From: Escherichia phage vB_EcoM_G17
Strand: one strand, 5' to 3'
Sequence record: MK327931.1
DNA length: 64,000 bases
In this document: positions 44,831 to 64,000 of the stretch, piece by piece
Numbering within the stretch: position 1 is the stretch's first letter
Layout of the letters: every line of letters begins with the position of its first letter
Program-made: the position numbers and the translations under genes
Notes under the pieces: generated by a model
What the model saw: the letters and a program-made list of their open reading frames with translations, nothing else
Told to the model about the DNA's origin: nothing
The model's database searches: none

Positions 44831-44832
44831 TG

Positions 44833-45033: not shown

Positions 45034-45056
45034 AATGTTTTACTCCAAACTATTGA

Positions 45057-45116: not shown

Positions 45117-45122
45117 ATAGTT

Positions 45123-45380
45123 TTATGAAATATCTTCGATGTAGTCGGCCCATTTCATTTTTTCAGTACTGTCAATGGCTACCGGATTATTTGGATCAAA
45201 CCATTCACCATTCCCGCAATACATACCCACGGCAACGGTTTTATATCCATCCTGTGCAGTACTCCACGACATAGCACGATAGATATGGCCTTTAACTGGT
45301 TGCAATACTGGTAATGTTTTATGGTCTTCTACGTAGGCCATAGCTTGAGGATTTACCCGATATTGTGTGAACTGTTCCAT
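45123..45380 (-). CDS. hypothetical protein
   Basis: ORF track. Confidence 0.65.
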   Translation of the reverse strand: MEQFTQYRVNPQAMAYVEDHKTLPVLQPVKGHIYRAMSWSTAQDGYKTVAVGMYCGNGEWFDPNNPVAIDSTEKMKWADYIEDIS

Positions 45381-45408
45381 TATGTTTCCCCTTGTAGTTA
45401 GTAAAGTT

Positions 45409-45437
45409 ATTACATCAGTACTATCAAGCTATGTCAA
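45409..45437 (-). promoter_or_regulatory. sigma70-like promoter (no leader hairpin)
   Basis: -35 TTGACA 45432-45437, 17-bp spacer, -10 TGTAAT 45409-45414. Confidence 0.5.
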
Positions 45438-45456
45438 TAGTACTGAAATAAAACTT

Positions 45457-45681
45457 TTAGATTAGATTATTGATGCCGTTGATGGTAGACTCGCTTTCTT
45501 CTTTCTCCCATTGGCGGTAGTACTTCCATGCTTCATGATATGTGGCGATTAGTTCATCTTTTTGATCCTGAGTACATGCCAGTACTGAATCACGGTGAGC
45601 GGTTTTATAGATAGAATCGAATGATTTCTTCTCTTCTGCCAGGTTAGCTACTTCCCGCATCAGTTCATCAAAGTTAGCCAT
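45457..45681 (-). CDS. hypothetical protein
   Basis: ORF track; AAGGAG SD. Confidence 0.65.
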   Translation of the reverse strand: MANFDELMREVANLAEEKKSFDSIYKTAHRDSVLACTQDQKDELIATYHEAWKYYRQWEKEESESTINGINNLI

Positions 45682-45699
45682 TTTATTACTCCTTTTAGT

Positions 45700-45756
45700 G
45701 GGGGAGGATATCTCCCCCTATGCAAAACATTATACTTTGTTTTAGTTATTATGCAA
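45700..45756 (-). promoter_or_regulatory. sigma70-like promoter + leader hairpin cassette
   Basis: -35 TTGCAT 45751-45756 (overlaps stop of 45749..46012), 16-bp spacer, -10 TATAAT 45729-45734, hairpin GGGGGAG..CTCCCCC 45700-45718. Confidence 0.6.
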
Positions 45757-46012
45757 GTACTTTTTTCATATAAAGATTATATTCTACACCGCCGTAACCT
45801 TCTACGATGATATGTTTTGCGTTATCACGTTTGCACATAGTGAAACCGTTGTTGATGTGTTCTGCATTTTCCAGGGCGACATCACCGATAGCGGCACATA
45901 CGGCACTAATAACAGTATTCCGCAAAGTACTGGTATCATTAGCGGTCATAGTAGTTTGCAGTACTACGTTGTCGTATACGTGTGCATTGATAGTGATTTC
46001 GATAGTGTTCAT
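45749..46012 (-). CDS. hypothetical protein
   Basis: ORF track; GGAG SD. Confidence 0.65.
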   Translation of the reverse strand: MNTIEITINAHVYDNVVLQTTMTANDTSTLRNTVISAVCAAIGDVALENAEHINNGFTMCKRDNAKHIIVEGYGGVEYNLYMKKVLA

Positions 46013-46030
46013 GGTGTATCTCCTGGACTG

Positions 46031-46091
46031 GCGGGAGAACTATTCCCCCGCTCTATGTAAAACATTATACGTTAATCTAACTACAATGCAA
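46031..46091 (-). promoter_or_regulatory. sigma70-like promoter + leader hairpin cassette
   Basis: -35 TTGCAT 46086-46091, 16-bp spacer, -10 TATAAT 46064-46069, hairpin 46031-46051. Confidence 0.6.
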
Positions 46092-46098
46092 GTACTTT

Positions 46099-46290
46099 TT
46101 AAATTTTATTTCCGATATAGTCCGGTCTATTCTTTTCGGTCATACGCTTTGCTAATGTTTGCATATGGCTTATTGCGTTTAATGTGTCTTCCTCCAGGGA
46201 TGAATCAACATAATCAGGATCATTCTTCACCTTGCAATGATTATGATAGCGTAGTACTGCCAGTACTTTTTTAACTTCTTCTACTGTCAT
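46099..46290 (-). CDS. hypothetical protein
   Basis: ORF track; ATGA-coupled to 46287..46559. Confidence 0.6.
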   Translation of the reverse strand: MTVEEVKKVLAVLRYHNHCKVKNDPDYVDSSLEEDTLNAISHMQTLAKRMTEKNRPDYIGNKI

Positions 46291-46559
46291 AATAAGTACC
46301 CCACTTCGTTAGCTTTCAGGTTAGTATCAATCATCAGTGGATTTTTGTAGTTCACAAAACGATTAGTTTTCTCGATAGCGAATCCCATATAATCCAGCTT
46401 ACTAACAGTACATTCATTCTTAAAAACTTCTTTCGCTGCATCGATGGCTGATTGCATGGATAACCGACCATCTAAATTAATGTTTCCAAATGATCCACCA
46501 GCAGAAGTAGGATTACCGTTCATATCTTTAATGATCATAGTAGCGGAGTAGCTGGACAT
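46287..46559 (-). CDS. hypothetical protein
   Basis: ORF track; AAGGA SD. Confidence 0.65.
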   Translation of the reverse strand: MSSYSATMIIKDMNGNPTSAGGSFGNINLDGRLSMQSAIDAAKEVFKNECTVSKLDYMGFAIEKTNRFVNYKNPLMIDTNLKANEVGYLL

Positions 46560-46581
46560 AATTTTGTTTCCTTTTAGTATC

Positions 46582-46640
46582 GGGGAGAACTATTCTCCCC
46601 TTGATGTAAACTATTATACAGTACTGATATACTTTGTCAA
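46582..46640 (-). promoter_or_regulatory. sigma70-like promoter + leader hairpin cassette
   Basis: -35 TTGACA 46635-46640, 16-bp spacer containing CAGTACTG, -10 TATAAT 46613-46618, hairpin GGGGAGAA-TAG-TTCTCCCC 46582-46600. Confidence 0.65.
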
Positions 46641-46646
46641 ATACTT

Positions 46647-47054
46647 TTATTCGCCCATATAGATTAAGTTATCATCGCCTACATAGGGATCGCAAACGTT
46701 GATTTCTTCGCAGTACTTCGTGAATACATCGCCATAGTGACCTAAACCACGATCCCAAAAACCAGTTCCGTGACCTTCGCGGGTAAGGAACAGATCATGA
46801 CCAGCTTGCTCATAACCGTAATCAATAAACATACCGCGAACTACTTCCAGATCATTACCGTGTTTCTCAATGAAGCGAGAACATGCAATCACCGCCGCTT
46901 GACGTGCTTCATCAGATAACTCATAATCTTCCAGGTAATCGCCGTTATCATTATGTACAGTACTGAATTGCATAGCTTCAATGTAAGCTACAACCATTGC
47001 AGCATGATTTTTATCGTTAGTGATGTTCCGAGCGAGATTAGTAGTAGTAGACAT
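46647..47054 (-). CDS. hypothetical protein
   Basis: ORF track; AAGGAA SD. Confidence 0.7.
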   Translation of the reverse strand: MSTTTNLARNITNDKNHAAMVVAYIEAMQFSTVHNDNGDYLEDYELSDEARQAAVIACSRFIEKHGNDLEVVRGMFIDYGYEQAGHDLFLTREGHGTGFWDRGLGHYGDVFTKYCEEINVCDPYVGDDNLIYMGE

Positions 47055-47075
47055 GATTTTATTCCTTATTGTATT

Positions 47076-47134
47076 GGGGAGAACTATTCTCCCCTTGATG
47101 TAAACTATTATACAGTACTGATATACTTTGTCAA
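47076..47134 (-). promoter_or_regulatory. sigma70-like promoter + leader hairpin cassette
   Basis: -35 TTGACA 47129-47134, 16-bp spacer, -10 TATAAT 47107-47112, hairpin 47076-47094; stop of upstream gene 4 bp from -35. Confidence 0.65.
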
Positions 47135-47137
47135 TAC

Positions 47138-54266: not shown

Positions 54267-54356
54267 TTAAATCACCATAAAGAATAGATAGGTTACTAAC
54301 AACGCCGCGATCAATGCACCGACCAGGGCCGAACTATAGTAAGCTAATGTTTTCAT
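54267..54356 (-). CDS. hypothetical hydrophobic micro-protein (29 aa)
   Basis: MKTLAYYSSALVGALIAALLVTYLFFMVI; coupled between two small genes. Confidence 0.3.
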   Translation of the reverse strand: MKTLAYYSSALVGALIAALLVTYLFFMVI

Positions 54357-54505
54357 TTTTTAGCCTGAAAATAATGTTTAATTTGTGCGGCGGTCAATGC
54401 ACAATTACGCAGGAAGTTTTCTGTATAACTGCGGCGAGTACTGAAAGAGAATTGACCTTTGCCGTTGCCGATAGTAACATCAAACCGAGCGTTGTATTGT
54501 TTCAT
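54353..54505 (-). CDS. hypothetical small protein (50 aa)
   Basis: Below ORF-track cutoff; ATG with AAGGAG SD directly after promoter cassette. Confidence 0.45.
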   Translation of the reverse strand: MKQYNARFDVTIGNGKGQFSFSTRRSYTENFLRNCALTAAQIKHYFQAKK

Positions 54506-54521
54506 TTTGATTCTCCTTGTA

Positions 54522-54586
54522 TCAGGGGAGAACCATTTCCCCCCCCTCTATGTAAACAATTATACAGTACTGGAAACTAATTGCAA
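54522..54586 (-). promoter_or_regulatory. sigma70-like promoter + leader hairpin cassette
   Basis: -35 TTGCAA 54581-54586, 16-bp spacer, -10 TATAAT 54559-54564, hairpin GGGGAGAACCATTTCCCCC about 54522-54546. Confidence 0.6.
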
Positions 54587-54589
54587 GTA

Positions 54590-54736
54590 CTATTTTTTAG
54601 ATTTACGCAAACTTTCTACCATCTCAGGAGTAAGGCCCGGCGGGTAGGAAACCACTTCATCCACAAAACGCAAAGGGAATACCCCAGCGAAAGGTGAACG
54701 TGCTTTCTTGTTAGTACTCTTTTTTGATGCTTTCAT
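54590..54736 (-). CDS. hypothetical small basic protein (48 aa)
   Basis: Below ORF-track cutoff; ATG with AAGGAA SD. Confidence 0.45.
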   Translation of the reverse strand: MKASKKSTNKKARSPFAGVFPLRFVDEVVSYPPGLTPEMVESLRKSKK

Positions 54737-54755
54737 TTCATATTCCTTAATTAGT

Positions 54756-54815
54756 GGGGAGAATCATTTCTCCCCTTCATGTAAAACATTATACAGTACT
54801 GAAAACTAATTGCAA
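54756..54815 (-). promoter_or_regulatory. sigma70-like promoter + leader hairpin cassette
   Basis: -35 TTGCAA 54810-54815, 16-bp spacer, -10 TATAAT 54788-54793, hairpin GGGGAGAA..TTCTCCCC 54756-54775. Confidence 0.6.
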
Positions 54816-55015
54816 GTACTATTTGAAAGTAAATGCTCATACGCTGCATTAACTACGTTTTCAATAACCGACTGTACAGAAAGATCCCCCACGTCCCGGC
54901 TATAGTAGAAATCGCTTACAGTGGTGTCATCGTATGCAAATACTTTACCAGGTACGGCATCAATCACATACATATTAACCTTTAAGATGTCGATCTTATC
55001 CTGTACAGTAAGCAT
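54806..55015 (-). CDS. hypothetical protein
   Basis: ORF track; 3-prime end overlaps -35 of downstream cassette. Confidence 0.55.
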   Translation of the reverse strand: MLTVQDKIDILKVNMYVIDAVPGKVFAYDDTTVSDFYYSRDVGDLSVQSVIENVVNAAYEHLLSNSTCN

Positions 55016-55020
55016 ATTAA

Positions 55021-55293
55021 TTAACCTTTTAAGTACTGGCTTAAGTAGTCTTGTTGATCTTCGGTGATTGCAGCCATCTTCCCTAGTACTGGATTGATGA
55101 TATAATCCCCTGTAACGTCCTGTAACGCATTCTCAGGCGGTTTAACGGCTGGGGTAGCCATAGCCATTGCCTGGACTTGTTCGACGCTGTAACGCTCATA
55201 AAGGCGGCATTCTTCCGGTGTTAACATAGCATCAGTACGCTTCATCGGTTTAATGATGCTTTCGATCTCATTCAGTACTTGATTAACGTTCAT
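55021..55293 (-). CDS. hypothetical protein
   Basis: ORF track. Confidence 0.65.
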   Translation of the reverse strand: MNVNQVLNEIESIIKPMKRTDAMLTPEECRLYERYSVEQVQAMAMATPAVKPPENALQDVTGDYIINPVLGKMAAITEDQQDYLSQYLKG

Positions 55294-55344
55294 GGTATAA
55301 TCCCCAATATAAGCGGCCTGAATCGACCGCTAACGATGTTTTGA

Positions 55345-55614
55345 TTAATAGGTGTATGGTTGACGTTCAAACAATGATTGCACGTTGTACGCCCCACTAA
55401 TGGGCTTTGCTGGTAAATCAATTTTATATTGTTCACGCTTAAAGATAATAAAACGGCAATTGTTTTTTACATCAAAATTGATTGAACGTTCCAGGAGTTT
55501 TCCATCGTGTACAAATACAAGATAACCGCTTGCTACTTGTTTTGTAGTACTGGTTGCAACCATAGACCGACGAACATGCGTACCTGCATCGATTAAAGTA
55601 CTGATATTTTTCAT
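55345..55614 (-). CDS. hypothetical protein
   Basis: ORF track; AGAGGA SD. Confidence 0.65.
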   Translation of the reverse strand: MKNISTLIDAGTHVRRSMVATSTTKQVASGYLVFVHDGKLLERSINFDVKNNCRFIIFKREQYKIDLPAKPISGAYNVQSLFERQPYTY

Positions 55615-55694
55615 TATACGATCCTCTTAAGTTAATTTAATTTCTTTCCCCTATGCAGACACTATATCAAAGTATCTGCATAAAGTAAAGCTAA

Positions 55695-56018
55695 TTAAAG
55701 ATCTTTTTTGCGTTTAACATTCTGTACAGTACAATGCAACGGGATATTAAGATCATTGCACACACGAGTAAGGGAGGTTTCATCAGTATTAAGCCCGTCT
55801 ACTGATTCCTTTAAGAGAGATAACGCCGTTTGTTGATATGCATCTTCATAGCCATAAGTAAATGATTCAACCGCCAGATCATTCAAACCGTTATCCAGTT
55901 CAACGCTTACATGACAAGAATGATAAGTATTGCCATATGAATCAGTCCAACGTTTACCGTCAACATTGATTGCACGGATTGCAGCCAGGGAAACGGTGTT
56001 AATGATAGTTTTAGCCAT
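55695..56018 (-). CDS. hypothetical protein (paralog of 49577..49900)
   Basis: ORF track; AAGGAA SD; shared RWTDxxGNTYHSC motif. Confidence 0.7.
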   Translation of the reverse strand: MAKTIINTVSLAAIRAINVDGKRWTDSYGNTYHSCHVSVELDNGLNDLAVESFTYGYEDAYQQTALSLLKESVDGLNTDETSLTRVCNDLNIPLHCTVQNVKRKKDL

Positions 56019-56059
56019 TTTTGTATTCCTTAAATTAATATGTTGTCTTGATAAAATCT

Positions 56060-56088
56060 ATTATGCCAGTACTATCAAACTATGTCAA
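56060..56088 (-). promoter_or_regulatory. sigma70-like promoter (no GC hairpin)
   Basis: -35 TTGACA 56083-56088, 17-bp spacer, -10 CATAAT 56060-56065. Confidence 0.5.
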
Positions 56089-56107
56089 TAGTACTGTGAT
56101 AATATTT

Positions 56108-56251
56108 TTACTTACTTTTTGCTTTCTTTGCTGCTTCCACCTGGTCGGCCCATTCTTTACCCCATACTTGTAAATTATAATGGTACTGGCAAAGAGCAAC
56201 GCCCCGCTTTAAACCCGTAATAGATTTCTGACCACATTGACAAGTTTTCAT
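56108..56251 (-). CDS. hypothetical small Cys-containing protein (47 aa)
   Basis: Below ORF-track cutoff; MKTCQCGQ...CQYH; ATG with AAGGAA SD. Confidence 0.45.
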   Translation of the reverse strand: MKTCQCGQKSITGLKRGVALCQYHYNLQVWGKEWADQVEAAKKAKSK

Positions 56252-56268
56252 TTTAGTTTCCTTGTAGT

Positions 56269-56328
56269 GGGGAGAACCATTTCTCCCCTTGATGTAATGT
56301 ATTATACTTTATTCGATTTACTTTGCAA
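56269..56328 (-). promoter_or_regulatory. sigma70-like promoter + leader hairpin cassette
   Basis: -35 TTGCAA 56323-56328, 16-bp spacer, -10 TATAAT 56301-56306, hairpin GGGGAGAA..TTCTCCCC 56269-56288. Confidence 0.65.
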
Positions 56329-56337
56329 GTACTTTTT

Positions 56338-56565
56338 TTAATTTAATTCATCCAGGCAAAGGATACGCTCAACGCCCAAATCAGTTAAACTAATCGACGG
56401 CACTTGATAGGTTTCAATGTATGCTACACTTGCCCACTGACCGAACTCATTAACGGCCCAGGTATTCATTGCATTTTGCAATTCCGCACCTTCCTTGTTG
56501 GTAATTACAGCAACAGTAGAAGAATTACCAGTAGTACCAGATACGCGAGTGATTACGATAGCCAT
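56338..56565 (-). CDS. hypothetical protein
   Basis: ORF track. Confidence 0.65.
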   Translation of the reverse strand: MAIVITRVSGTTGNSSTVAVITNKEGAELQNAMNTWAVNEFGQWASVAYIETYQVPSISLTDLGVERILCLDELN

Positions 56566-56597
56566 TTTTTAATTCCTATTCAGTAGTTGATGTATGT

Positions 56598-56626
56598 ATT
56601 ATGTCAGTACTTAAAACTATTGTCAA
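56598..56626 (-). promoter_or_regulatory. sigma70-like promoter (no GC hairpin)
   Basis: -35 TTGACA 56621-56626, 17-bp spacer, -10 CATAAT 56598-56603. Confidence 0.5.
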
Positions 56627-56634
56627 ACTATTTT

Positions 56635-56787
56635 TTAAAGTTTATCAATGATTGATGCCGTTTCATTGATAGTCTTGCCGTGTTTTGCACACGCGATAAC
56701 TGCTTTAAATTCCTTTGATGACCAATCTTTCTTGCTGCATACTGACATTACTTGTAAAGTAAAACAATCCAGTTCATAAGTATTCAT
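56635..56787 (-). CDS. hypothetical small protein (50 aa)
   Basis: Below ORF-track cutoff; ATG with GAGGA SD. Confidence 0.45.
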   Translation of the reverse strand: MNTYELDCFTLQVMSVCSKKDWSSKEFKAVIACAKHGKTINETASIIDKL

Positions 56788-56832
56788 CTTTAAATCCTCA
56801 GTTAGTTAAGGTGTCTCGCCTTGATGTAATTA

Positions 56833-56860
56833 ATTATACGCTAATCTCTTAATCGTGCAA
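56833..56860 (-). promoter_or_regulatory. sigma70-like promoter (short leader hairpin)
   Basis: -35 TTGCAC 56855-56860, 16-bp spacer, -10 TATAAT 56833-56838. Confidence 0.5.
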
Positions 56861-57001
56861 GTACTTTTTATTACTTTTTGCAAAATACTTTAAACGCTCT
56901 CAATCGCATTCTAACGACCTTAACTCCACCAGCTAGGGCGATGTATCAGATAATCAGTTTAATGCGTTAGGCGGTGCTAGTGGACTGGAATACTATAGAC
57001 A

Positions 57002-57030
57002 CAAAAAAGCCCACTGTTTAAGGTGGGCTA
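57002..57030 (-). terminator. rho-independent terminator
   Basis: Hairpin AGCCCAC-CTTAAACA-GTGGGCT 57008-57029 followed on minus strand by U6; after stop of 57051..57533. Confidence 0.7.
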
Positions 57031-57050
57031 GTGATTCAGTACTTTAATTT

Positions 57051-57533
57051 TTATGCTTCAACTTTGCGATGAGCTTCGATCCATTCCTCGCGAGTCATAC
57101 CGCTTTCTTTGATAGCGTCCAGTACTACCGCAATGCAGTTACCGCGTACAGGAATCAAATGTTCTTCCCCGTTATCAAGTACTACCGCTACACGTTCCTG
57201 AATCCATTTTTTAGGCTTAGATTCCGGCTTATCTTCACCATACTTAACCGCCAGGGCTTTATGTGCCATTTCCACAACCACTTCCAGATCCAATCCAGAC
57301 ACTGCCGCCTGAATACTTTCAATTGTTGCTTGTAGTTCTGCTTCACGGGCTTTTTTCTGTTCTTCCAGTTCTGCTACCTTTTTGGCTTGCAGTTCTTTCG
57401 CAGTACTGTACGCAATGTTAAAATTGTTGCGTACCGCTTTCATGGTATCGCTATCCAGTTCAGCCAGGATTTCTGCCGCTACGTTAGTTTCATTTGCTAC
57501 CAGTGCTTTGATGAATGATTTTACATTAGCCAT
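57051..57533 (-). CDS. hypothetical protein (coiled-coil rich)
   Basis: ORF-track start is TTG; trimmed to ATG (MANVKSF) with GAGGA SD; Lys/Glu/Ala-rich helical repeats. Confidence 0.65.
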   Translation of the reverse strand: MANVKSFIKALVANETNVAAEILAELDSDTMKAVRNNFNIAYSTAKELQAKKVAELEEQKKAREAELQATIESIQAAVSGLDLEVVVEMAHKALAVKYGEDKPESKPKKWIQERVAVVLDNGEEHLIPVRGNCIAVVLDAIKESGMTREEWIEAHRKVEA

Positions 57534-57656
57534 TTTATAAATCCTCAATTAAAGTTTAGTTTACGTTAGATAGTGTATCAAAGTTTTCTCGACGTGTCCA
57601 GTTTTTCGTTCGACTTACTGGCGGTCTACTTAGTGCTCCCCGTCTTGATGTAATAC
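57534..57656 (-). other. conserved structured leader element, copy 3 (5-prime UTR of 57051..57533)
   Basis: About 120-nt leader beginning ACATCAAGACGGGGAGC, homologous to 50596-50680 and 60584-60672. Confidence 0.4.
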
Positions 57657-57684
57657 ATTCTACGCTTTTCTGTGGTAATGTCAA
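57657..57684 (-). promoter_or_regulatory. sigma70-like promoter
   Basis: -35 TTGACA 57679-57684, 16-bp spacer, -10 TAGAAT 57657-57662. Confidence 0.55.
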
Positions 57685-57737
57685 CTACTTTTTTAAAACT
57701 ATTTTTAAAGTATCTCAGTACTACGATACTACAAAAA

Positions 57738-57766
57738 CAAAAAAGCCCACTGTTTAAGGTGGGCTA
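57738..57766 (-). terminator. rho-independent terminator (duplicate of 57002-57030)
   Basis: Identical hairpin AGCCCACTGTTTAAGGTGGGCT 57744-57765 with A/U runs; after stop of 57783..58082. Confidence 0.7.
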
Positions 57767-57782
57767 GTGATTCAGTACTAGA

Positions 57783-58082
57783 TTATAAACAGTTAATTAC
57801 TCCGGTGTGCGTTACTTTCTCAGTATCCATAACCGTGACCGATCCACGCTTAGTACTGGCATCATAATAAATTGTGGTGCTACCGTTTTCGTCTTCTTCA
57901 TGGAACGGGCCGTTTTTAAATGCTTCCGGCTGGATCTCTAAATCCTTTAATACAATCTCGCCAGTTCTTTCATCGGTCATTGCAACAGTGCACTGAATGA
58001 ATTTTTCATTACTTACATCTAATGACGCATTAACAGCGAAAGAGGAAACAGATAAAGCCAGGGCGATGATTGCAATTTTCAT
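57783..58082 (-). CDS. hypothetical secreted or lipoprotein-like protein
   Basis: N-terminal signal-peptide-like MKIAIIALALSVSSFAVNAS; AAGGA SD. Confidence 0.65.
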   Translation of the reverse strand: MKIAIIALALSVSSFAVNASLDVSNEKFIQCTVAMTDERTGEIVLKDLEIQPEAFKNGPFHEEDENGSTTIYYDASTKRGSVTVMDTEKVTHTGVINCL

Positions 58083-58102
58083 TTGATTATCCTTAGTTAC
58101 CA

Positions 58103-58161
58103 GGGGGAACCGCTCCCCCTTGCTATGTAAAATATTATACAGTACTAAAAACTAATTGCAA
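58103..58161 (-). promoter_or_regulatory. sigma70-like promoter + leader hairpin cassette
   Basis: -35 TTGCAA 58156-58161, 16-bp spacer, -10 TATAAT 58134-58139, hairpin GGGGGAACCGCTCCCCC 58103-58119. Confidence 0.6.
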
Positions 58162-58166
58162 GTACT

Positions 58167-58403
58167 TTATGATTTTTTATAAAACATTTCGGCAGTGATA
58201 TTTTTACCCGTTGGCTGTACTTTATCCAGAATTTTTTGATGCCCTGGCCGTCCAAATGAATATGATCCGTAAACCGTAAACCAGTAGTTACCCTCAGTGT
58301 TTACATGTACAGCACAATAGGGAACGCCCCGCGATTCATCACTAGTAAAGTGTGCTACCGTTCCCGTTACATTCGAAGTCGTTGATTTGATTTGTTCAAG
58401 CAT
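58167..58403 (-). CDS. hypothetical protein
   Basis: ORF track; AAGGAA SD. Confidence 0.65.
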   Translation of the reverse strand: MLEQIKSTTSNVTGTVAHFTSDESRGVPYCAVHVNTEGNYWFTVYGSYSFGRPGHQKILDKVQPTGKNITAEMFYKKS

Positions 58404-58423
58404 TTTCTTATTCCTTAGTTACC

Positions 58424-58477
58424 AGGGGAACCGCTCCCCTATGCAAAACATTATACGCGTTTAAAAACTAATAGCAA
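58424..58477 (-). promoter_or_regulatory. sigma70-like promoter + leader hairpin cassette
   Basis: -35 TTGCTA 58472-58477, 16-bp spacer, -10 TATAAT 58450-58455, hairpin AGGGGAACCGCTCCCCT 58424-58440. Confidence 0.55.
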
Positions 58478-58510
58478 GTATTTTAATAAAAAGTATTTGG
58501 AAAATAATTG

Positions 58511-58539
58511 TTGACAAGTGCATCCAGTACTGGCATAAT
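58511..58539 (+). promoter_or_regulatory. plus-strand sigma70-like promoter
   Basis: -35 TTGACA 58511-58516, 17-bp spacer with AGTACT, -10 CATAAT 58534-58539; opposite orientation to flanking genes. Confidence 0.5.
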
Positions 58540-58545
58540 TACTAC

Positions 58546-58653
58546 ATCAAGACGAAACAGTCACTAACCCACCGGGTGCATAGATCCGTCTATTAAATGA
58601 TTCAGTACTGAAAAAGTAACGGGGAGTTATTATCTCCCCGCGTTGTTATTTTG
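58546..58653 (+). ncRNA. candidate small RNA (promoter-to-terminator unit, about 105 nt)
   Basis: Starts about 7 nt after -10, contains motif AACCCACCGGGTGCATAG, ends at hairpin CGGGGAG-TTATTAT-CTCCCCG 58620-58640 plus U-rich tail; no ORF. Confidence 0.4.
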
Positions 58654-58867
58654 TAAGGTATAAACAGAAGTCACCTTTATTTGCTACGCCGCCAGTGTAA
58701 CGCGATGAATAGTTAGAAATATCTTGTACTTCTGCTATTACCAGTGTATCATCATTCATTTCGTCGCAGAAGCAAACGGCTGGATCTTTTACGCCGATAT
58801 TGTCGGCATGTTCCCGCATAGATTTAACCAGTGCTTCCAGTTGAGAAAGAGTAGTGATATTAGCCAT
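58646..58867 (-). CDS. hypothetical protein
   Basis: ORF track 58646..58897 trimmed to ATG (MANITTLSQ) with GAGGA SD. Confidence 0.6.
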   Translation of the reverse strand: MANITTLSQLEALVKSMREHADNIGVKDPAVCFCDEMNDDTLVIAEVQDISNYSSRYTGGVANKGDFCLYLTK

Positions 58868-58885
58868 TGTATTTTCCTCATTACC

Positions 58886-58945
58886 AGGGAGAACCATTTC
58901 TCCCCTCTATGTAAACTATTATACAGTACTGAAAACTAATTGCAA
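58886..58945 (-). promoter_or_regulatory. sigma70-like promoter + leader hairpin cassette
   Basis: -35 TTGCAA 58940-58945, 16-bp spacer, -10 TATAAT 58918-58923, hairpin about 58886-58906. Confidence 0.6.
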
Positions 58946-58953
58946 GTACTTTT

Positions 58954-59157
58954 TTAATTTAATTGCTTTAAAACATACTCAAAGACACCACGCACATCAT
59001 TGATCATCGCCTGGCGGTTAGCAGGTAACGCATCAGGATCGCCACTATCCCAGGCATTGATAAAACTCCCCAAATCATGATAGATTTTATTCTGTAAGCC
59101 GATTAACTGTAATTCTTTTTCTTCAAGCTCTTTGATGCGGTCGATTAAATCACTCAT
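58954..59157 (-). CDS. hypothetical protein
   Basis: ORF track 58954..59193 trimmed to ATG (MSDLIDRIK) with TGAGGATTATCTA SD. Confidence 0.55.
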   Translation of the reverse strand: MSDLIDRIKELEEKELQLIGLQNKIYHDLGSFINAWDSGDPDALPANRQAMINDVRGVFEYVLKQLN

Positions 59158-59174
59158 TAGATAATCCTCAGTAC

Positions 59175-59459
59175 TTAACTGTAAGATCCGCAACGGTCGC
59201 AGTAGTGCCCGTCCTCGTCATCGTCAACGAATTGACCGACGAAATGATCTACTTTCGCTTTCAGGTTATTATAATCGTTTTCTACTTCATTTAAACGCTT
59301 CTGGTAGTATTCCAGTGCTTTAAGATATGCCGCATCAGCAGTTTTCTCCTGCATAGCTAAATTCATGCCACGCGTTTCATCGTACAGCCAAAAACCATCG
59401 GTGCACTGGCTAATAGATAATGACTTGCTTAGTACTGTATAGTTAATTACTTTACCCAT
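59175..59459 (-). CDS. hypothetical protein
   Basis: ORF track; same SD sequence as downstream gene; C-terminal CDRCG. Confidence 0.65.
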   Translation of the reverse strand: MGKVINYTVLSKSLSISQCTDGFWLYDETRGMNLAMQEKTADAAYLKALEYYQKRLNEVENDYNNLKAKVDHFVGQFVDDDEDGHYCDRCGSYS

Positions 59460-59476
59460 TAGATAATCCTCAGTAA

Positions 59477-59537
59477 AGGCGGGAACTATTCCCCGCCTCG
59501 ATATAAAGTATTATACGTTAATCTAACTACAATGCAA
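59477..59537 (-). promoter_or_regulatory. sigma70-like promoter + leader hairpin cassette
   Basis: -35 TTGCAT 59532-59537, 16-bp spacer, -10 TATAAT 59510-59515, hairpin AGGCGGGAACTATTCCCCGCCT 59477-59498. Confidence 0.6.
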
Positions 59538-59551
59538 GTACTTTTTAAATT

Positions 59552-59818
59552 TTATAATCCTTTTACTGCATCAGGTGCGACTACTCCATCAATGTATTGA
59601 ACATCGTTTTCAACTTCACGGGCGGCATCATTCAGCAGATCAAAATTAAATTCCATTTCTTCCAGATCATCGAAATCAGGCTCATAACCATTAATTGTTG
59701 AATAAGTCCAAGTACCTTTTTCATAAGTTACGACACTTACATCAGGGAAGAAATCTTGCACATGATCCATCGCATCCCGAACCAATTGATGTGCAGTTGT
59801 GATATTTAAAGTTTTCAT
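59552..59818 (-). CDS. hypothetical protein
   Basis: ORF track. Confidence 0.65.
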   Translation of the reverse strand: MKTLNITTAHQLVRDAMDHVQDFFPDVSVVTYEKGTWTYSTINGYEPDFDDLEEMEFNFDLLNDAAREVENDVQYIDGVVAPDAVKGL

Positions 59819-59839
59819 TTTGTTGCCCTTTTAGTGTGA

Positions 59840-59899
59840 GCGGGGAACCACTCCCCGCCTCGATGTAAAGTATTATACGCTTTTAAACTTAGTTTGCAA
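59840..59899 (-). promoter_or_regulatory. sigma70-like promoter + leader hairpin cassette
   Basis: -35 TTGCAA 59894-59899, 16-bp spacer, -10 TATAAT 59872-59877, hairpin GCGGGGAACCACTCCCCGC 59840-59858. Confidence 0.6.
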
Positions 59900-59911
59900 G
59901 TACTTTTTAAA

Positions 59912-60523
59912 TTAATATGCGATTGATTCTACTACGTCATCAATAACATTGAATTGATATTCGTTACCCTCAATCAGTGCCGTAATGTTTTCAGTAGTGA
60001 ATTGATCCTCATATGCATTCTCTAAATCACGGTACAACTTGCGGGATAATTCACGAATAGTTTCAGTGAGTAGTTCCTCAAGCTCATTAACTAACGTTTC
60101 TTGTTTTGCGGTTAAATCAGTGTAAGCCGATTCAATGTACCCGCTTACAGTATTCTCATGCGAGTAGTGGGAGTGAGAACGCTTTACACTCATCGCCAAA
60201 TCATCTTCATTCAGCAGGTGACGGATTGAGCGATACTTAGTTAATGCTCTTACCTTGCGTAAAAACTTCACTGCGTCAACGTGGTCAGTACTGATTGATG
60301 CACCGTCACCCTGGGACCAAAAACCACTGAATTGTATTTCAGCTTCATTAATGCCATATTCCGGTAGTACTGTTTCTTTATAGTATTCAATTTCACTTTC
60401 AGAAAAATAATTGTCGTTTGAGTTTTTTTCACGTTCCCGAACCAGTTCGATAGCTGACGTTTTTTGTTCTGCGTTCAATTCAGAAAAATCCATAACGAAA
60501 GTAGTAGTAGTGATAGTTTTCAT
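59912..60523 (-). CDS. hypothetical protein
   Basis: ORF track; 203 aa; contains SGFWSQGDGAS; GAGGG SD. Confidence 0.7.
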   Translation of the reverse strand: MKTITTTTFVMDFSELNAEQKTSAIELVREREKNSNDNYFSESEIEYYKETVLPEYGINEAEIQFSGFWSQGDGASISTDHVDAVKFLRKVRALTKYRSIRHLLNEDDLAMSVKRSHSHYSHENTVSGYIESAYTDLTAKQETLVNELEELLTETIRELSRKLYRDLENAYEDQFTTENITALIEGNEYQFNVIDDVVESIAY

Positions 60524-60555
60524 TTTGTAACCCTCATTCAGTAGTTGATGTAAGT

Positions 60556-60583
60556 ATTATACGCTTTTAAAAACATTTGTCAA
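60556..60583 (-). promoter_or_regulatory. sigma70-like promoter
   Basis: -35 TTGACA 60578-60583, 16-bp spacer, -10 TATAAT 60556-60561. Confidence 0.55.
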
Positions 60584-60672
60584 ACTATTTTATCAGGGGA
60601 GTTTTTCGTGTGCCTTACTCCTGGGCTACTTAACGGGAAGTTACTTATTTCGTTCCCCGTCCTGATGTAAAA
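60584..60672 (-). other. conserved structured leader element, copy 2
   Basis: Homologous to 50596-50680, differing at a handful of positions; no ORF. Confidence 0.4.
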
Positions 60673-60673
60673 C

Positions 60674-60701
60674 ATTATACGCCTTTAAACATAGTTTGCA
60701 A
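60674..60701 (-). promoter_or_regulatory. sigma70-like promoter
   Basis: -35 TTGCAA 60696-60701, 16-bp spacer, -10 TATAAT 60674-60679. Confidence 0.5.
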
Positions 60702-60746
60702 GTACTTTTTAAAAATAGTTTTCAGTACTGAATATTTAAAAAAGTA

Positions 60747-60775
60747 TTGACAGCATTATCAAGTACTGGCATAAT
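60747..60775 (+). promoter_or_regulatory. plus-strand sigma70-like promoter
   Basis: -35 TTGACA 60747-60752, 17-bp spacer, -10 CATAAT 60770-60775; transcript would begin with AGCTAACCCACCGGGTGCAC motif. Confidence 0.45.
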
Positions 60776-60890
60776 ATACCCCATGACAACAGCTAACCCA
60801 CCGGGTGCACAATTGTAACTATACTAAACTACTTTTTCTATAGATACACTCCCGCACCCTATGGGCTACGGCTTATCTGCCAATGAATAC

Positions 60891-60919
60891 ATTATGCCAG
60901 TACTGACAAAATAAGTCAA
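60891..60919 (-). promoter_or_regulatory. minus-strand promoter convergent with plus promoter at 60747-60775
   Basis: -35 TTGACT 60914-60919, 17-bp spacer, -10 CATAAT 60891-60896. Confidence 0.4.
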
Positions 60920-60949
60920 TACCGGCAATTGTAAAGATTTGTAAACTGC

Positions 60950-61180
60950 TTATACTGCAATCGCGTCCAGGCTATAATAATAATAAGTGCCGTATTGGTG
61001 TACTTTATTACCTTTTATTTCAGTACTGAATGAATCCGAACGGTTTGCATATGATGTTAATTTAAAGTACTTTGATTTGCTGATACGTTGCCATACACCG
61101 CAGATCCGCTGTAAGTAAGTAGTTTTATTCGTGGTAGTATCTTTTACAGTTTTAACTTCAGTCATATACATATTAGTCAT
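60950..61180 (-). CDS. hypothetical protein
   Basis: ORF track; GGAG SD. Confidence 0.6.
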   Translation of the reverse strand: MTNMYMTEVKTVKDTTTNKTTYLQRICGVWQRISKSKYFKLTSYANRSDSFSTEIKGNKVHQYGTYYYYSLDAIAV

Positions 61181-61201
61181 TTTTATTACTCCAGGTTATA
61201 G

Positions 61202-61260
61202 GCGGGAAGAGTTCCCGCTCTCGATGTAAAACATTATACGCCATTAAACATAGTTTGCAA
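61202..61260 (-). promoter_or_regulatory. sigma70-like promoter + leader hairpin cassette
   Basis: -35 TTGCAA 61255-61260, 16-bp spacer, -10 TATAAT 61233-61238, hairpin GCGGGAA-GAG-TTCCCGC 61202-61218. Confidence 0.6.
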
Positions 61261-61267
61261 GTACTTT

Positions 61268-61534
61268 TTATTCAAGTACTGCAATCTTTTTAGTACGGTA
61301 CACGGTCACGCGGTTGCCCTTTCGGTCGAGCTTTATTTCTACCACTCGACGCGATACACTATCAGGACTTTTCAACGCCGCTAACCAGTACTGTAATGAT
61401 CTGGCGGTACTACGCTTTATAATGGCCCAACGTTTACCACGTTCCGATTGTACGCCCATATCTTTAAACGTTGCCCCGTCCTGGCGTGCGGCGATCCGAG
61501 CTTGTTCACGCGTCGCAAAATACTTAATATTCAT
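61268..61534 (-). CDS. hypothetical protein (paralog of 49086..49490)
   Basis: ORF track 61268..61570 trimmed to ATG (MNIKYFATREQAR) with AAGGG SD. Confidence 0.6.
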   Translation of the reverse strand: MNIKYFATREQARIAARQDGATFKDMGVQSERGKRWAIIKRSTARSLQYWLAALKSPDSVSRRVVEIKLDRKGNRVTVYRTKKIAVLE

Positions 61535-61575
61535 GCTGTTGCCCTTATCGTTGGTGTATGAATAAAACACTATTA

Positions 61576-61606
61576 TAAAGTACTATCGCAAAAAATGATA
61601 GTACTT
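61576..61606. promoter_or_regulatory. 11-bp inverted repeat AAAGTACTATC / GATAGTACTTT (candidate operator or attenuator)
   Basis: Perfect 11-bp arms separated by 9 bp, each containing AGTACT; sits where a -35 box would be expected upstream of 61268..61534. Confidence 0.35.
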
Positions 61607-61619
61607 TAAATAAATTCTA

Positions 61620-61859
61620 TTACATTCCAACCATTGCAGCACGGATCGCAGTAGTGCTATATTTGAATCCGTCCGGCGTTTTATCTTGTCCAGTCTGTTC
61701 TAAAAATAACATCATATGACGGGCCGCATCATTACGATTAGTATTGGCGGCAATAAAGTCCTGGGCCAACCGGTATAATGATTCATCGTTATTAATCCAA
61801 AGGCTTACATTCCAATGAGTTTTGTTTTTGTGACCTAAGAACATTTTTGATTTAGCCAT
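61620..61859 (-). CDS. hypothetical protein
   Basis: ORF track 61620..61898 trimmed to ATG (MAKSKMF) with AAGAGGA SD. Confidence 0.6.
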   Translation of the reverse strand: MAKSKMFLGHKNKTHWNVSLWINNDESLYRLAQDFIAANTNRNDAARHMMLFLEQTGQDKTPDGFKYSTTAIRAAMVGM

Positions 61860-61880
61860 TTTTTTAATCCTCTTATATAG

Positions 61881-61938
61881 TGGGGAACTATTCCCCACCT
61901 GATGTAAAACATTATACGCTTTTAAACATAGTTTGCAA
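61881..61938 (-). promoter_or_regulatory. sigma70-like promoter + leader hairpin cassette
   Basis: -35 TTGCAA 61933-61938, 16-bp spacer, -10 TATAAT 61911-61916, hairpin TGGGGAA-CTA-TTCCCCA 61881-61897. Confidence 0.6.
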
Positions 61939-61952
61939 GTACTTTATTAAAC

Positions 61953-62315
61953 TTATTCGTAAATTTTGCCACTGTCAGCCCATACCAGGAAACGAGGCAT
62001 ATTATCCCATGCATCTTGTTTTAAATTTAAACCGTGTAATACTTCTGTACTTTCCATTCCTGGTACTGGTTTACTATACACCGCGAAATTTTCGCCCATA
62101 TACTGATAAACCATCGTCAAATCACTGGCGATCATCTTATGGATCATCGCATCAAGCATCACGGTAGCGGCGTATTGTTCACGCTTAAGCGGCAACATTG
62201 TAATAAGTTCCCGATAAGCTGAAATGTGAATTTTTACCGTTTCAGCCGGAAGACCTTTCATCTCTTCACGGAAGTTGACCAGGTTAGAAATAATTTTATT
62301 GATTTGGGTCGCCAT
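61953..62315 (-). CDS. hypothetical protein
   Basis: ORF track 61953..62372 trimmed to ATG (MATQINKII). Confidence 0.6.
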   Translation of the reverse strand: MATQINKIISNLVNFREEMKGLPAETVKIHISAYRELITMLPLKREQYAATVMLDAMIHKMIASDLTMVYQYMGENFAVYSKPVPGMESTEVLHGLNLKQDAWDNMPRFLVWADSGKIYE

Positions 62316-62339
62316 CGTATTAATCTCTTTTAAAGTGTA

Positions 62340-62398
62340 GCGGGAAGTGTTCCCGCTCTCGATGTAAAACATTATACGCCTTTAAACATAGTTTGCAA
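62340..62398 (-). promoter_or_regulatory. sigma70-like promoter + leader hairpin cassette (first of the leftward small-gene cluster)
   Basis: -35 TTGCAA 62393-62398, 16-bp spacer, -10 TATAAT 62371-62376, hairpin GCGGGAA-GTG-TTCCCGC 62340-62357. Confidence 0.6.
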
Positions 62399-62634
62399 GT
62401 ACTTTCTACATGTACTTTTAAAATAGTTTTCTTTCTATATAGGGGAACTATCATTCAGTACTATTATTCAGTACTGAATCAACCAAATCACTACTACACC
62501 CCATAAAACGGCCTCAGACGCATTCTAACGCATTAATACACCTAAGCTATACATTTGCACCATTCCAATCATTCCAGGGCTTTACGGGCCGTTTAAACGC
62601 GTTAAATTATTTTCAATTATTTTGTTTTTAGCTA

Positions 62635-62662
62635 TTGACTCAGTACAGAAAAAGCGTATAAT
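62635..62662 (+). promoter_or_regulatory. plus-strand sigma70-like promoter
   Basis: -35 TTGACT 62635-62640, 16-bp spacer, -10 TATAAT 62657-62662. Confidence 0.45.
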
Positions 62663-62850
62663 TACTACATAGACGCGAGAAAGCGGAAACCCCAGAGGGT
62701 GCGGAATTACGCCCAAAATTCAAGATATAAAAAAAGGATACACTCCCGCACCCTAGCAGGTAAACGCACTTTCTCAGTACTGAAATATAGTACCATAGTC
62801 CGGCCCAGGATAGCAAGCAAATTAATTAAAACTTTTTTGCTTCCAGGGTA

Positions 62851-62878
62851 TTGCTTTATTTTTTCAGTACTGTATAAT
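62851..62878 (+). promoter_or_regulatory. plus-strand sigma70-like promoter
   Basis: -35 TTGCTT 62851-62856, 16-bp spacer with CAGTACTG, -10 TATAAT 62873-62878; followed by CATCAAG..AGCCCACCGGGTGCATAG. Confidence 0.45.
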
Positions 62879-63099
62879 AGTTCCATCAAGTCGAGAAAGA
62901 CTCAAGCCCACCGGGTGCATAGTTACGCCCAAAATTCAGTACTGAAAAAATTTTTAAAAATATCCGTCCAGGCCGTTGACATTGCCCCCAGTTTATAAGA
63001 TAATGATTCCAGATTCAGAAAAATCTAACTCCAGATACTGCGGGGAAACTATCCCCACGCGGTAGGGGAACTATTGGAAAAAACAAAATAAAATTTTGA

Positions 63100-63230
63100 T
63101 TTAGCCGTCTATACTTCCAGACGTGTAACCATCTAGCCGTTTAGCCGTCCAAACGTCTAGCCATCCAGAAATCTAGCCGTCTAGATGGATAGCCATCTTT
63201 ACTTCCAGACTTCTGGAGGGCTAGACATAT
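63100..63230. repeat. iteron-like cluster of short direct repeats (TCTAGCC / TAGCCGTC / TAGCCATC)
   Basis: At least 7 copies of CTAGCC-type units within about 130 bp of ORF-free DNA. Confidence 0.5.
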
Positions 63231-63607
63231 CTACGCCCAAAATCCATCCAGGGTAACTACACCCAAAATCCGTCAGTACTATACCATAGATCTATCTTTT
63301 GAAAGGGAGTATTCAGTACTGCCATCATAGCCCTCACTATGTTACCCTAGGAGGATGAAGACCATCATGTAGTACTGAATACTGTTAGAGGGAATCCACC
63401 AGCACAAGCTGGTGGTATAATGCTTTAGATTAAAATCAGTACTGACACCATTCTGTTAATATCAGTACTGTTATTACGATTTTCATATGAGGTTCAAAAA
63501 GATGTACCACCACAGGAGGAACTATCTTTTCTGTACTGTCTCACGACAGGAGGTAGAGTAAATGAATTGTTCGCAGCAACTCATCACCCCTTGAAGCTAT
63601 GTAGAAC

Positions 63608-63635
63608 ATTATACAGTACTGAATCATAATGTCAA
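63608..63635 (-). promoter_or_regulatory. sigma70-like promoter in right-hand control region
   Basis: -35 TTGACA 63630-63635, 16-bp spacer, -10 TATAAT 63608-63613; no obvious downstream ORF. Confidence 0.4.
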
Positions 63636-64000
63636 TAGCTTTCTTTCATTATTCAGTACTGATATTCTTGAGAACTACCCGACTACAAACATCATTATAT
63701 CCCACAAATCATAAACGTCCCAACGTAAATTTCAACTTTCGAAGATCCAACTTTTATTTCATAGGTACTCCAAAATTTTTAGGATCGAGATTTAGGATGG
63801 AGTACTAACCAACTTTTTGCTGGAGCCTCAAGGGGTAATTGAATTTTACCCCGAAGGGTAAAAGGGTAATTGTAATTAAGGTGAAAGTAATAATTCAGTA
63901 CTAATCATTGCGTGATTACTTTTGATTACATTTGATGTAATTTGCAAAATGGAAAAGGAGCTTGGAAACTACAAAGTACGGCAGACTTCCTCTGCCTACT

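Follow-up and report, generated by a model that had tools for sequence, protein, structure and literature searches.

Why should a jumbo phage keep a repeat-dense stretch of DNA, without credible genes, at the end of its genome? The locus that raises this question lies in a 64,000-nucleotide (nt) stretch (hereafter, the window) of Escherichia phage vB_EcoM_G17 (MK327931.1), an Asteriusvirus jumbo coliphage with a genome of ~350 kb. A first-pass annotation had read positions 62400–63300 as a non-coding control region with iteron-like repeats, typical of a replication origin or of a binding array for a regulatory or packaging protein. Here we report that the repeats form 16 contiguous 8-bp units that match met boxes, the operator units of the host repressor MetJ, and that such arrays recur in or beside the terminal repeats of otherwise apparently unrelated phages. 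We propose, with moderate confidence, that this oversized operator most likely serves as a cis-acting roadblock or architectural element in the outer part of the direct terminal repeat (DTR).

A met-box array close to a genome end

The last 2 kb of the window match 45 Asteriusvirus jumbo-phage records, and the Escherichia phage Sharanji is 100% identical to the window across the last 4 kb. In exact alignments, window position 64000 corresponds to record position 1, in reverse orientation, of six end-resolved relatives (BF17, vB_Ec-M-J, ELP-22, E9.1, CRJP21 and fEgEco12). Because the terminus of these six DTR-resolved genomes coincides there, we take position 64000 to be the physical genome end. 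The first-pass annotation had suggested a link to a genome end, which this alignment supports, and had not remarked that the window stops exactly at one. For fEgEco12, PhageTerm analysis backed by restriction digests located the termini and gave a DTR of 20,993 bp (PMC13070987), and the DTR of Sharanji is 20,668 bp long (PMC11895373). In vB_Ec-M-J, the opposite DTR boundary corresponds to window position ~43,333, so that the aligned ends and boundaries of the relatives place the DTR at 43333–64000 (~20.7 kb); the repeat-dense region is therefore its non-coding outer 1.6 kb. All small DTR genes are on the minus strand, with transcription directed away from the terminus at 64000, and the last of them ends at 62372. 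The remaining 1,628 bp (62373–64000) hold only short, unsupported open reading frames (ORFs), in agreement with the first-pass annotation, and are left without any annotation in most deposited relatives.

Within this region, a repeat search and Tandem Repeats Finder (TRF) detected 8-, 16- and 32-bp periodicity at 63100–63227, which in register amounts to 16 abutting 8-bp units at 63103–63230. Boxes 1–8 read AGCCGTCT, ATACTTCC, AGACGTGT, AACCATCT, AGCCGTTT, AGCCGTCC, AAACGTCT and AGCCATCC, and boxes 9–16 read AGAAATCT, AGCCGTCT, AGATGGAT, AGCCATCT, TTACTTCC, AGACTTCT, GGAGGGCT and AGACATAT, with the unit consensus AG(C/A)CGTCT. The CTAGCC-type direct repeats noticed earlier are real and more regular than had been described. 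With one mismatch allowed, the octamer TCTAGCCG occurs 13 times in the window against 14.8 expected and is not enriched; seven of these 13 matches cluster within 126 bp, and it is the clustering that is not due to chance.

Met boxes, with the consensus AGACGTCT, are the units of the tandem-box operators of MetJ, a repressor that depends on S-adenosylmethionine (SAM) (PMC4239095). We built a matrix from 20 natural boxes, the best four in each of the metBJ, metF, metA, metE/R and metK control regions of E. coli MG1655, and scanned both strands of the window blindly. The four best four-box matches all fell within 63103–63238 and scored 20–34 bits, compared with 12–18 bits for the next best matches elsewhere in the window and 7–25 bits per four boxes for the natural operators when each was left out of the matrix in turn. 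Over 12 boxes the array reached 89–90 bits, whereas the runner-up scored −10 to −15 (mean ~−75, standard deviation 16). The mean match to AGACGTCT was 5.9 of 8 positions in the phage boxes and 5.35 of 8 in the natural boxes. When 222 boxes from 14 phages were pooled, they correlated with the natural matrix at r = 0.92, a value reached by none of 20,000 permutations, whereas the other seven phases gave −0.32 to 0.12. The agreement between pooled phage boxes and natural boxes extended to the second-choice bases.

A two-box 16-mer, AGCCGTCTAAAC(G/A)TCT (AGCCGTCTAAACRTCT), is common to the arrays of the phages BF, XbC2, Kaldavass, AhSzq-1 and PR1 (described below); Sharanji has both of its boxes, non-adjacent. 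When this 16-mer was searched in 185,579 bacterial genomes, 20 of the 120 bacterial loci returned had the start or end of a metJ, metB, metF, metE, metK or metA gene within 600 nt, mostly at 20–160 nt, against a chance expectation of ~0.3 by our own estimate. Like the bacterial met operators (metA, metBJ, metC, metE/R, metF and metK), the array consists of contiguous 8-bp boxes with the met-box consensus and TCT/AG junctions, and the same degenerate variants (AAAC, GGAC, AGAT, AGCC and ATCC halves) are found in both. Phage arrays differ from them in size, with 16–30 boxes (nine in the shortest) as opposed to two to five, and in the much commoner C at box position 3. The array also lies off any methionine-gene promoter, in a terminal repeat and ~770 nt inside the physical end. 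TrpR was considered as a binder of the 8-bp-spaced CTAG and was rejected on inspection of the sequences: the junction GTCTAG(A/C)C fits the met junction at 7–8 of 8 positions, and the trp operator ACTAGT shares with it only the CTAG core. By its sequence, the array is an oversized met operator, and we infer that MetJ would bind it.

Recurrence and replacement of the array in other phages

In seven Asteriusvirus genomes the array comprises 16–25 boxes, and the length differences of 8, 16 or 24 bp correspond to whole boxes. Serratia phage BF, XbC2 and Kaldavass have 16 boxes each, at 647–672 nt from the terminus in BF and XbC2. Among the T5-like Demerecviridae, Aeromonas phage AhSzq-1 carries ~28 boxes, Vibrio phages Pontus and JSF10 carry 17 and 20, and Providencia phage PR1 carries nine, at about record position 9,620 of its 10,461-bp DTR and ~770 nt from the boundary. 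Met-box arrays are also present in the T7-like coliphages PGT2 and phiKT. In PGT2, nine boxes occupy positions 38–109 of an exact 260-bp terminal repeat (1–260 and 4741–5000 of the stretches compared), or ~30% of that repeat. The conservation in relatives that the first-pass annotation had named as a check was thus found, with the array kept across several phage genera. With one labelled exception, discussed below, the recorded hosts of the array-bearing phages are Enterobacterales, Vibrionales or Aeromonadales, all of which have MetJ, and E. coli has metJ.

A variable copy number between close relatives (16–25 boxes) is what would be expected of a neutral, slippage-prone minisatellite without function that merely resembles met boxes. 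The unit consensus, however, is kept across five jumbo-phage genera and two other families while individual units differ, and the array occupies the same place between conserved flanks. Moreover, by our own calculation, a random unit would match a given palindromic octamer at seven of eight positions, in any phase, with P ~0.003. We therefore regard a functionless satellite as very improbable, and clearly less likely than an operator array.

The same distribution bears on the identity of the binder. The array could bind a phage-encoded protein with convergent or descended MetJ-like recognition, such as a ribbon–helix–helix (RHH) regulator, a partition protein of the ParG/omega type or a small terminase subunit, for packaging recognition or early-gene control. 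Short contiguous repeat arrays are typical of RHH centromeres and operators; in RHH centromeres of the ParG/omega type, as in iterons, tandem short repeats are cooperatively coated by a dimeric protein. The array also lies 770 nt from the cut that makes the genome end, and our scans for a binder covered only a small part of the 350-kb genome. Within that scope, the searches returned no candidate. A tblastn search with E. coli MetJ against 50,697 phage records recovered bacterial contaminants only and no phage homologue, and none of the 46 DTR ORFs matched an RHH, MetJ, Arc or ParG family; apart from unknown families, the scans of these ORFs (46 against Pfam, the ten largest against PHROGs) gave a DksA/TraR zinc finger and a ParE-like domain. 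Unlike iterons and RHH centromeres, then, the array came with no cognate phage protein in the MetJ search or among the 46 DTR ORFs, and its unit is a host operator sequence. The box matrix agrees with E. coli met boxes down to their second-ranking bases, and the phage two-box 16-mer is in use at real met promoters. Because the same boxes recur in T7-like phages, T5-like phages and jumbo myoviruses, three groups otherwise apparently unrelated, a shared host factor would be the economical reading, and a phage-encoded binder seems unlikely by comparison.

The Klebsiella relatives Muenster, phiKp_21 and fENko-Kae01 have no met-box array. Between the same flanking blocks they carry ~115–125 bp of repeats such as AAATGAGAATCATTATCATT (at 2978–3100 in Muenster, 2820–2935 in fENko-Kae01 and 2891–3010 in phiKp_21, in coordinates of the compared stretches). 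These repeats match the Fur box GATAATGATAATCATTATC at 14–17 of 19 positions, with 7–11 sites per locus versus 0.3–0.6 in shuffles. A Fur box also takes the place of TTACGCCCAAAATTC in the loop of a conserved palindromic unit upstream of the array (the P1 unit, see below) in BF, fENko-Kae01 and Muenster. Because Fur boxes fill both the met-box slot and this loop in relatives, the identity of the host repressor is, to judge from these sequences, interchangeable, and what is kept is an array for a cooperative, corepressor-dependent host repressor.

Arrays of this kind might also act in trans as transcription-factor sponges. Replicated to hundreds of copies, each with 16 boxes (twice over), they would titrate MetJ and derepress methionine and SAM synthesis (metE, metF, metK and others) for a heavily expressed 350-kb genome, and Fur arrays would do likewise for iron uptake. 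Titration of Fur by multicopy Fur boxes is established (the Fur titration assay), arrays of 9–30 boxes are far longer than any regulatory operator (2–5 boxes), and placement in a DTR doubles the dose. In PGT2 and phiKT, furthermore, a SAM-dependent methyltransferase is encoded by an early gene close by, the first to be annotated in that direction. A sponge needs no terminal-repeat position, yet three unrelated families have their arrays inside such repeats or next to them. The sponge is also weakened by the early shut-off or degradation of the host chromosome in T5-like and T7-like infections, after which little would be left to derepress. A swap from MetJ to Fur, finally, changes the derepressed regulon, which would be odd for a metabolic purpose and natural for a structural one. 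For jumbo phages a sponge is possible, but as a general explanation of the arrays we give it only a small chance.

The surrounding terminal module

Comparison of sequences identifies the surroundings of the array as a conserved terminal module. We compared the termini pairwise with those of Klebsiella phage Muenster (Alcyoneusvirus), Serratia phage BF (Eneladusvirus), XbC2 (Mimasvirus) and Klebsiella phage fENko-Kae01, for which average nucleotide identity to Asteriusvirus is below ~30% (PMC13070987). Blocks of 62373–64000 are kept in Alcyoneusvirus, Eneladusvirus, Mimasvirus and the fENko-Kae01 group at similar distances from the terminus, in the common order P1 palindrome, P2 copy, P3 with a hairpin and a box, array, two ACNCCCAAAAT motifs, Chi pair and terminal inverted repeat.

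Promoter P1 (TTGACT-16-TATAAT; 62635–62662, plus strand; 11 of 12 consensus positions) is directed towards the terminus and is conserved, with its downstream unit, across five genera. This palindromic unit (62677–62775, plus strand) has the arms GAGAAAG..AGGGTGCGG (62677–62704) and CCGCACCCT..CTTTCTC (62746–62775), with TTACGCCCAAAATTC in its loop (62707–62721). In an alignment of ten P1-type units from different genera, 10 of the 21 predicted pairs show compensatory changes, and the palindromes may act as RNA or as DNA. Promoter P2 (TTGCTT-16-TATAAT, with CAGTACTG in its spacer), which was read by eye and lies under the scan threshold, is followed by a degenerate copy of the unit (together 62851–62950, plus strand). 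The two units form a direct repeat of 79 nt with 71% identity, and the P2 copy bears TTACGCCCAAAATTC at 62923–62937. Promoter P3 (TTGACA-17-GATAAT; 62976–63004, plus strand; 11 of 12 positions) is directed towards the array and the terminus. The array, which overlaps no promoter, begins ~90 nt downstream of the expected P3 start and ~99 nt after the P3 −10 element. P3 is clearly kept in fENko-Kae01 (TTGACA..GATAAT); the alignments of XbC2 and BF cover only the block downstream of the promoter. Directly upstream of the array, the hairpin GCGGGG-AAACTAT-CCCCACGC is followed by the box GGTAGGGGAACTATTGGAAAAA (63040–63082, plus strand). The stem covaries between genera (GGGG/CCCC, CGGAAT/ATTCCG, CTGG/CCAG and AGGG/CCCT), and the box (GGTAGG..AATGGAAAAA) is conserved between them.

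P1, P2 and P3 are of the sigma-70 type, and all face the terminus without an ORF behind them. On the minus strand, a sigma-70 promoter with a 12 of 12 match (TTGACA-16-TATAAT; 63608–63635) fires inward, convergent with P3 across the array, and a sigma-70-like promoter with a 10 of 12 match lies at 62398–62371. The first-pass annotation had correctly reported promoters in both orientations. It had also listed copies of a motif, TACGCCCAAAAT, that with at most one mismatch occurs four times in the window, all in this region (at 62708, 62924, 63232 and 63258), against 0.35 expected and with no shuffle giving four. The copies and their restriction to the region stand; the second had been placed 10 nt off, at 62913–62927 instead of 62923–62937. 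The third and fourth, (C/T)TAC(G/A)CCCAAAAT(C/T)C motifs at 63231–63245 and 63257–63271 (plus strand), are kept in fENko-Kae01, BF and Asteriusvirus. Compared by eye with the consensus sites of IHF, Fis, MetR, NarL, the marbox and others, TACGCCCAAAAT gave no convincing match. The sequence TACACCCAAAATCCGTCA at 63257–63274 resembles the DRD repeat of phage T5 (TGTGCAAATCCGACA) save for one indel; nine DRD copies flank the T5 DTR boundary, and the two are possibly analogous sites for a phage protein.

Closer to the end, an inverted Chi pair, CCACCAGC-ACAA-GCTGGTGG (63396–63415), is kept in fENko-Kae01, PBECO4, 121Q, fEgEco12 and vB_Ec-M-J. The window holds 11 copies of Chi (GCTGGTGG), where 0.41 would be expected; one lies at 4128 and the others within 44695–63415. 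The minus strand carries nine, each within the DTR and oriented for RecBCD entry at the DTR boundary near 43,333, and the plus-strand copy at 63408–63415 is correctly oriented for entry at the terminus. With Chi properly oriented for both, the two physical ends would be guarded. A terminal inverted repeat, GGTACTCC-N27-GGAGTACT (63764–63806), has 93% identity in fENko-Kae01 and 82% in XbC2 and is recognizable in BF and Muenster, lying 53–197 nt from the end in relatives. The window itself closes with a small inverted repeat, GGCAG-N7-CTGCC, then TACT and the physical end (63980–64000), and the fENko-Kae01 genome likewise ends in an inverted repeat. An Rfam scan of 61800–64000 gave best scores of 18–20 bits against gathering thresholds of 44–97.

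These features bear on whether the region is a replication origin, with the repeats as iterons beside divergent promoters that activate or prime initiation. Priming R-loops of the kind known from T4-type origins could in principle arise from three strong promoters without ORFs and from the conserved palindrome that follows P1. The array, however, consists of contiguous 8-mers and not of iterons spaced at 17–22 bp, no DnaA boxes occur in 62373–64000, and no initiator gene is adjacent (46 DTR ORFs against Pfam, ten against PHROGs). No AT-rich unwinding element was identified beside the array, though none was specifically searched for, and in relatives Fur boxes replace the array. Analysis of GC skew, which the first-pass annotation had proposed for locating an origin, revealed no inflection up to the window end, and there is no strand switch in or near the region; this is weak evidence, as the window stops at the terminus. 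We consider the origin proposed in the first-pass annotation highly unlikely, and less likely than the host-operator reading. Its other suggestion, a binding array for a regulatory or packaging protein, fares better in part: the region looks like a conserved cis-acting, protein-binding control region, but what the array matches is the operator of a host repressor, not a site where a phage protein for replication or packaging would bind.

Several further features extend beyond the terminal region. The palindrome CAGTACTG, whose enrichment had gone unremarked in the first-pass annotation, occurs 63 times in the window against 0.8 expected, with nine copies in 62400–64000, and its core AGTACT occurs 251 times against ~21, with 15 copies there. 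The palindrome is frequent in promoter spacers, directly ahead of TATAAT (eight cases), and also stands alone. CAGTACTG may be a genome-wide regulator site or promoter element, and because it is genome-wide it is not specific to the terminal region; its likeness to the SlmA site GTGAGTACTCAC is limited to the AGTACT core, and this candidate was rejected. At 60580–62400, the small early genes all have one and the same cassette in front of them, made up of a sigma-70 promoter (TTGCAA-16-TATAAT), a GC-rich hairpin (GTGGGGAATAGTTCCCCAC or GCGGGAACACTTCCCGC) and a Shine–Dalgarno sequence, which we take to resemble the promoter-early-stem-loop cassettes of T4-type phages. Hairpins of this kind (GGGGAACTAT...) also occur in the repeat-dense region, as the first-pass annotation had noted.

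The G+C content is ~31% in window 1–42000 and rises to 37–39% near the junction of unique DNA and DTR (42000–64000). The few recognizable domains in the 46 small DTR ORFs (43041–62372, minus strand) comprise a DksA/TraR zinc finger, a ParE-like toxin domain, DUF7249, DUF7247 and one weak kinase-like match, which may point to host-takeover functions. In the collapsed Sharanji record, beyond the position of the terminus (8800–13100 of the stretch compared), ~4 kb adjoining the DTR boundary are likewise gene-poor and contain repeated units of the type GTAGTATTCTTTATGCATATTAGTACCTATATATTAG.

Possible roles of a host-repressor array at a genome end

What could an oversized MetJ operator do in this position? 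In a SAM-replete cell, MetJ–SAM dimers would bind one per box and polymerize cooperatively, as they do on bacterial operators of two to five boxes, and this coating would cover ~128 bp. The resulting nucleoprotein block would separate P3 from 63635(−), the promoter convergent with it, and the Chi site from the remainder of the repeat, and the array would most likely be a corepressor-dependent roadblock or architectural element in cis at the DTR boundary. It might act as a roadblock between the two promoters, as a brake behind a properly oriented Chi for RecBCD entering from the end, as a helper of terminase at the nearby cut, where it may have a role in terminase assembly, or as a DNA-entry stop signal as in T5. 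We favour a role in cis because three phage families place their arrays within or next to a terminal repeat, because MetJ and Fur are interchangeable in the same slot, and because the early loss of the host chromosome in T5-like and T7-like infections weakens the sponge. Given Fur boxes in the Klebsiella slot and met arrays in T5-like and T7-like terminal repeats, the presence of an abundant, cooperative host repressor at that place seems to be what matters, and a gene-specific operator role is less likely.

Several points weigh against this proposal. MetJ binding in vivo is predicted from sequence, as is the roadblock or architectural role that would follow from it. The natural boxes behind the matrix were delimited in this analysis, as the best consensus matches in known control regions, and the metK set among them is weak, scoring 7.4 bits against a matrix built without it. 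C at box position 3 (AGCC) has a frequency of 0.41 in the phage boxes as opposed to 0.16 in the natural boxes; because ~40% of phage boxes carry this minority variant of E. coli operators, the affinity per box could be low. Per-position constraint within Asteriusvirus is modest, with positions 1–2 varying least and positions 6–8 varying as much as 3–5, and the promoter-then-array arrangement was not found in the T5-like PR1. Candidates for the binder were sought in 64 kb of a 350-kb genome, so that a phage binder could lie elsewhere. Finally, the recorded host of XbC2 is Xanthomonas, a member of an order (Xanthomonadales) that lacks MetJ. The terminal region and 16-box array of XbC2 are nearly identical to those of Erwinia phage Kaldavass; XbC2 is either a phage with a doubtful host label or a real exception.

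The closest parallel for the placement of the array is in phage T5, in which Repeat Region 3, at the inner end of the left terminal repeat, holds a cis-acting injection stop signal and contains DnaA boxes described by Davison (10.1101/866236). The two loci share their topology: in each, early genes of a terminal repeat are transcribed away from a non-coding repeat region of 1–1.6 kb that abuts the repeat boundary. In window orientation, the left DTR copy here, like the left terminal repeat of T5, runs from the physical end through early genes directed towards that end, and then through the non-coding repeat region into unique DNA. Both also cluster sites for host proteins, namely met boxes and a Chi pair here, and DnaA, LexA and Fur-like or Met sites in T5-like phages. 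In the T5 sequence, we read palindrome D as a perfect LexA box and the DRC/palE–I repeats as Fur-box-like (four sites versus 0.16 expected); the Davison preprint mentions none of Fur, LexA or MetJ. T5, PR1, Pontus, AhSzq-1 and JSF10 all have a perfect LexA box (CTGTAT-N4-ATACAG) and TTATCCACA DnaA boxes, and beside these lie Fur-box-like repeats in T5 and met-box arrays in the other four. These sites lie where the T5 injection stop signal maps (for T5, the stretch compared was 9000–10700). On this comparison, the array may correspond, in jumbo phages, to the cluster of host-factor sites that T5 has in Repeat Region 3.

The resemblance to T5 is functional and topological and does not indicate membership of the same family, because the jumbo phages have no LexA or DnaA boxes in the terminal region, and no homologues of the pre-early proteins A1 and A2 were found among the 46 DTR ORFs (Pfam) or the ten largest (PHROGs). 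Sharanji shows no sequence homology to T5 in the counterpart of Repeat Region 3, and the array was rejected as a homologue of the T5 repeats, because T5 lacks met boxes and its DRD repeat is TGTGCAAATCCGACA. Two-step DNA transfer is a T5 trait that depends on A1 and A2, and for these jumbo phages it is a proposal by analogy. A more speculative extension is that host-repressor arrays at the DTR boundary form a shared host-factor checkpoint and the long-sought injection stop (or a packaging or recombination brake). Newly entered DNA would be coated by pre-existing, metabolite-loaded repressors (MetJ or Fur, together with LexA and DnaA in T5-like phages), and Rak2-like jumbo phages with ~20-kb DTRs would read SAM or iron status in a T5-style two-step delivery. 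We think this improbable as a whole.

Host-factor sites in phages have precedents of other kinds. In lambda cosB, an IHF site near the terminase cut is an architectural helper. That is a single bending site close to the cut, whereas here a 128-bp array lies 770 nt away and no terminase sites have been identified. A study of CtrA sites in phages of Alphaproteobacteria (PMC9437464) describes a virulent phage that embeds host-regulator operators and so couples to host physiology. The CtrA sites described there are single, promoter-proximal and used to control phage genes, in contrast to the long, promoter-distal tandem array in a terminal repeat. Our literature searches turned up no account of phage terminal repeats that carry operator arrays for MetJ or Fur, and the paper on phage XacN1 does not mention its termini. 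Although host-factor sites are known as T5 DnaA boxes, CtrA sites and the IHF site of lambda cosB, MetJ and Fur arrays in terminal repeats appear to be new, and the occurrence of MetJ-type arrays in the terminal repeats of unrelated phages suggests a previously undescribed use of host regulators at DNA ends.

If this reading is correct, three unrelated groups of virulent phages place oversized operators of metabolite-sensing host repressors inside their terminal repeats. It would account for a conserved, unannotated 1.6-kb region in dozens of deposited genomes of therapeutic-candidate phages. It would also provide a molecular candidate for the cis element of the T5 injection stop, a question open since the 1960s, and would raise the same question for jumbo phages that have 20-kb terminal repeats. 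More broadly, such arrays would represent a new way for lytic phages to read or exploit the physiological state of their hosts.

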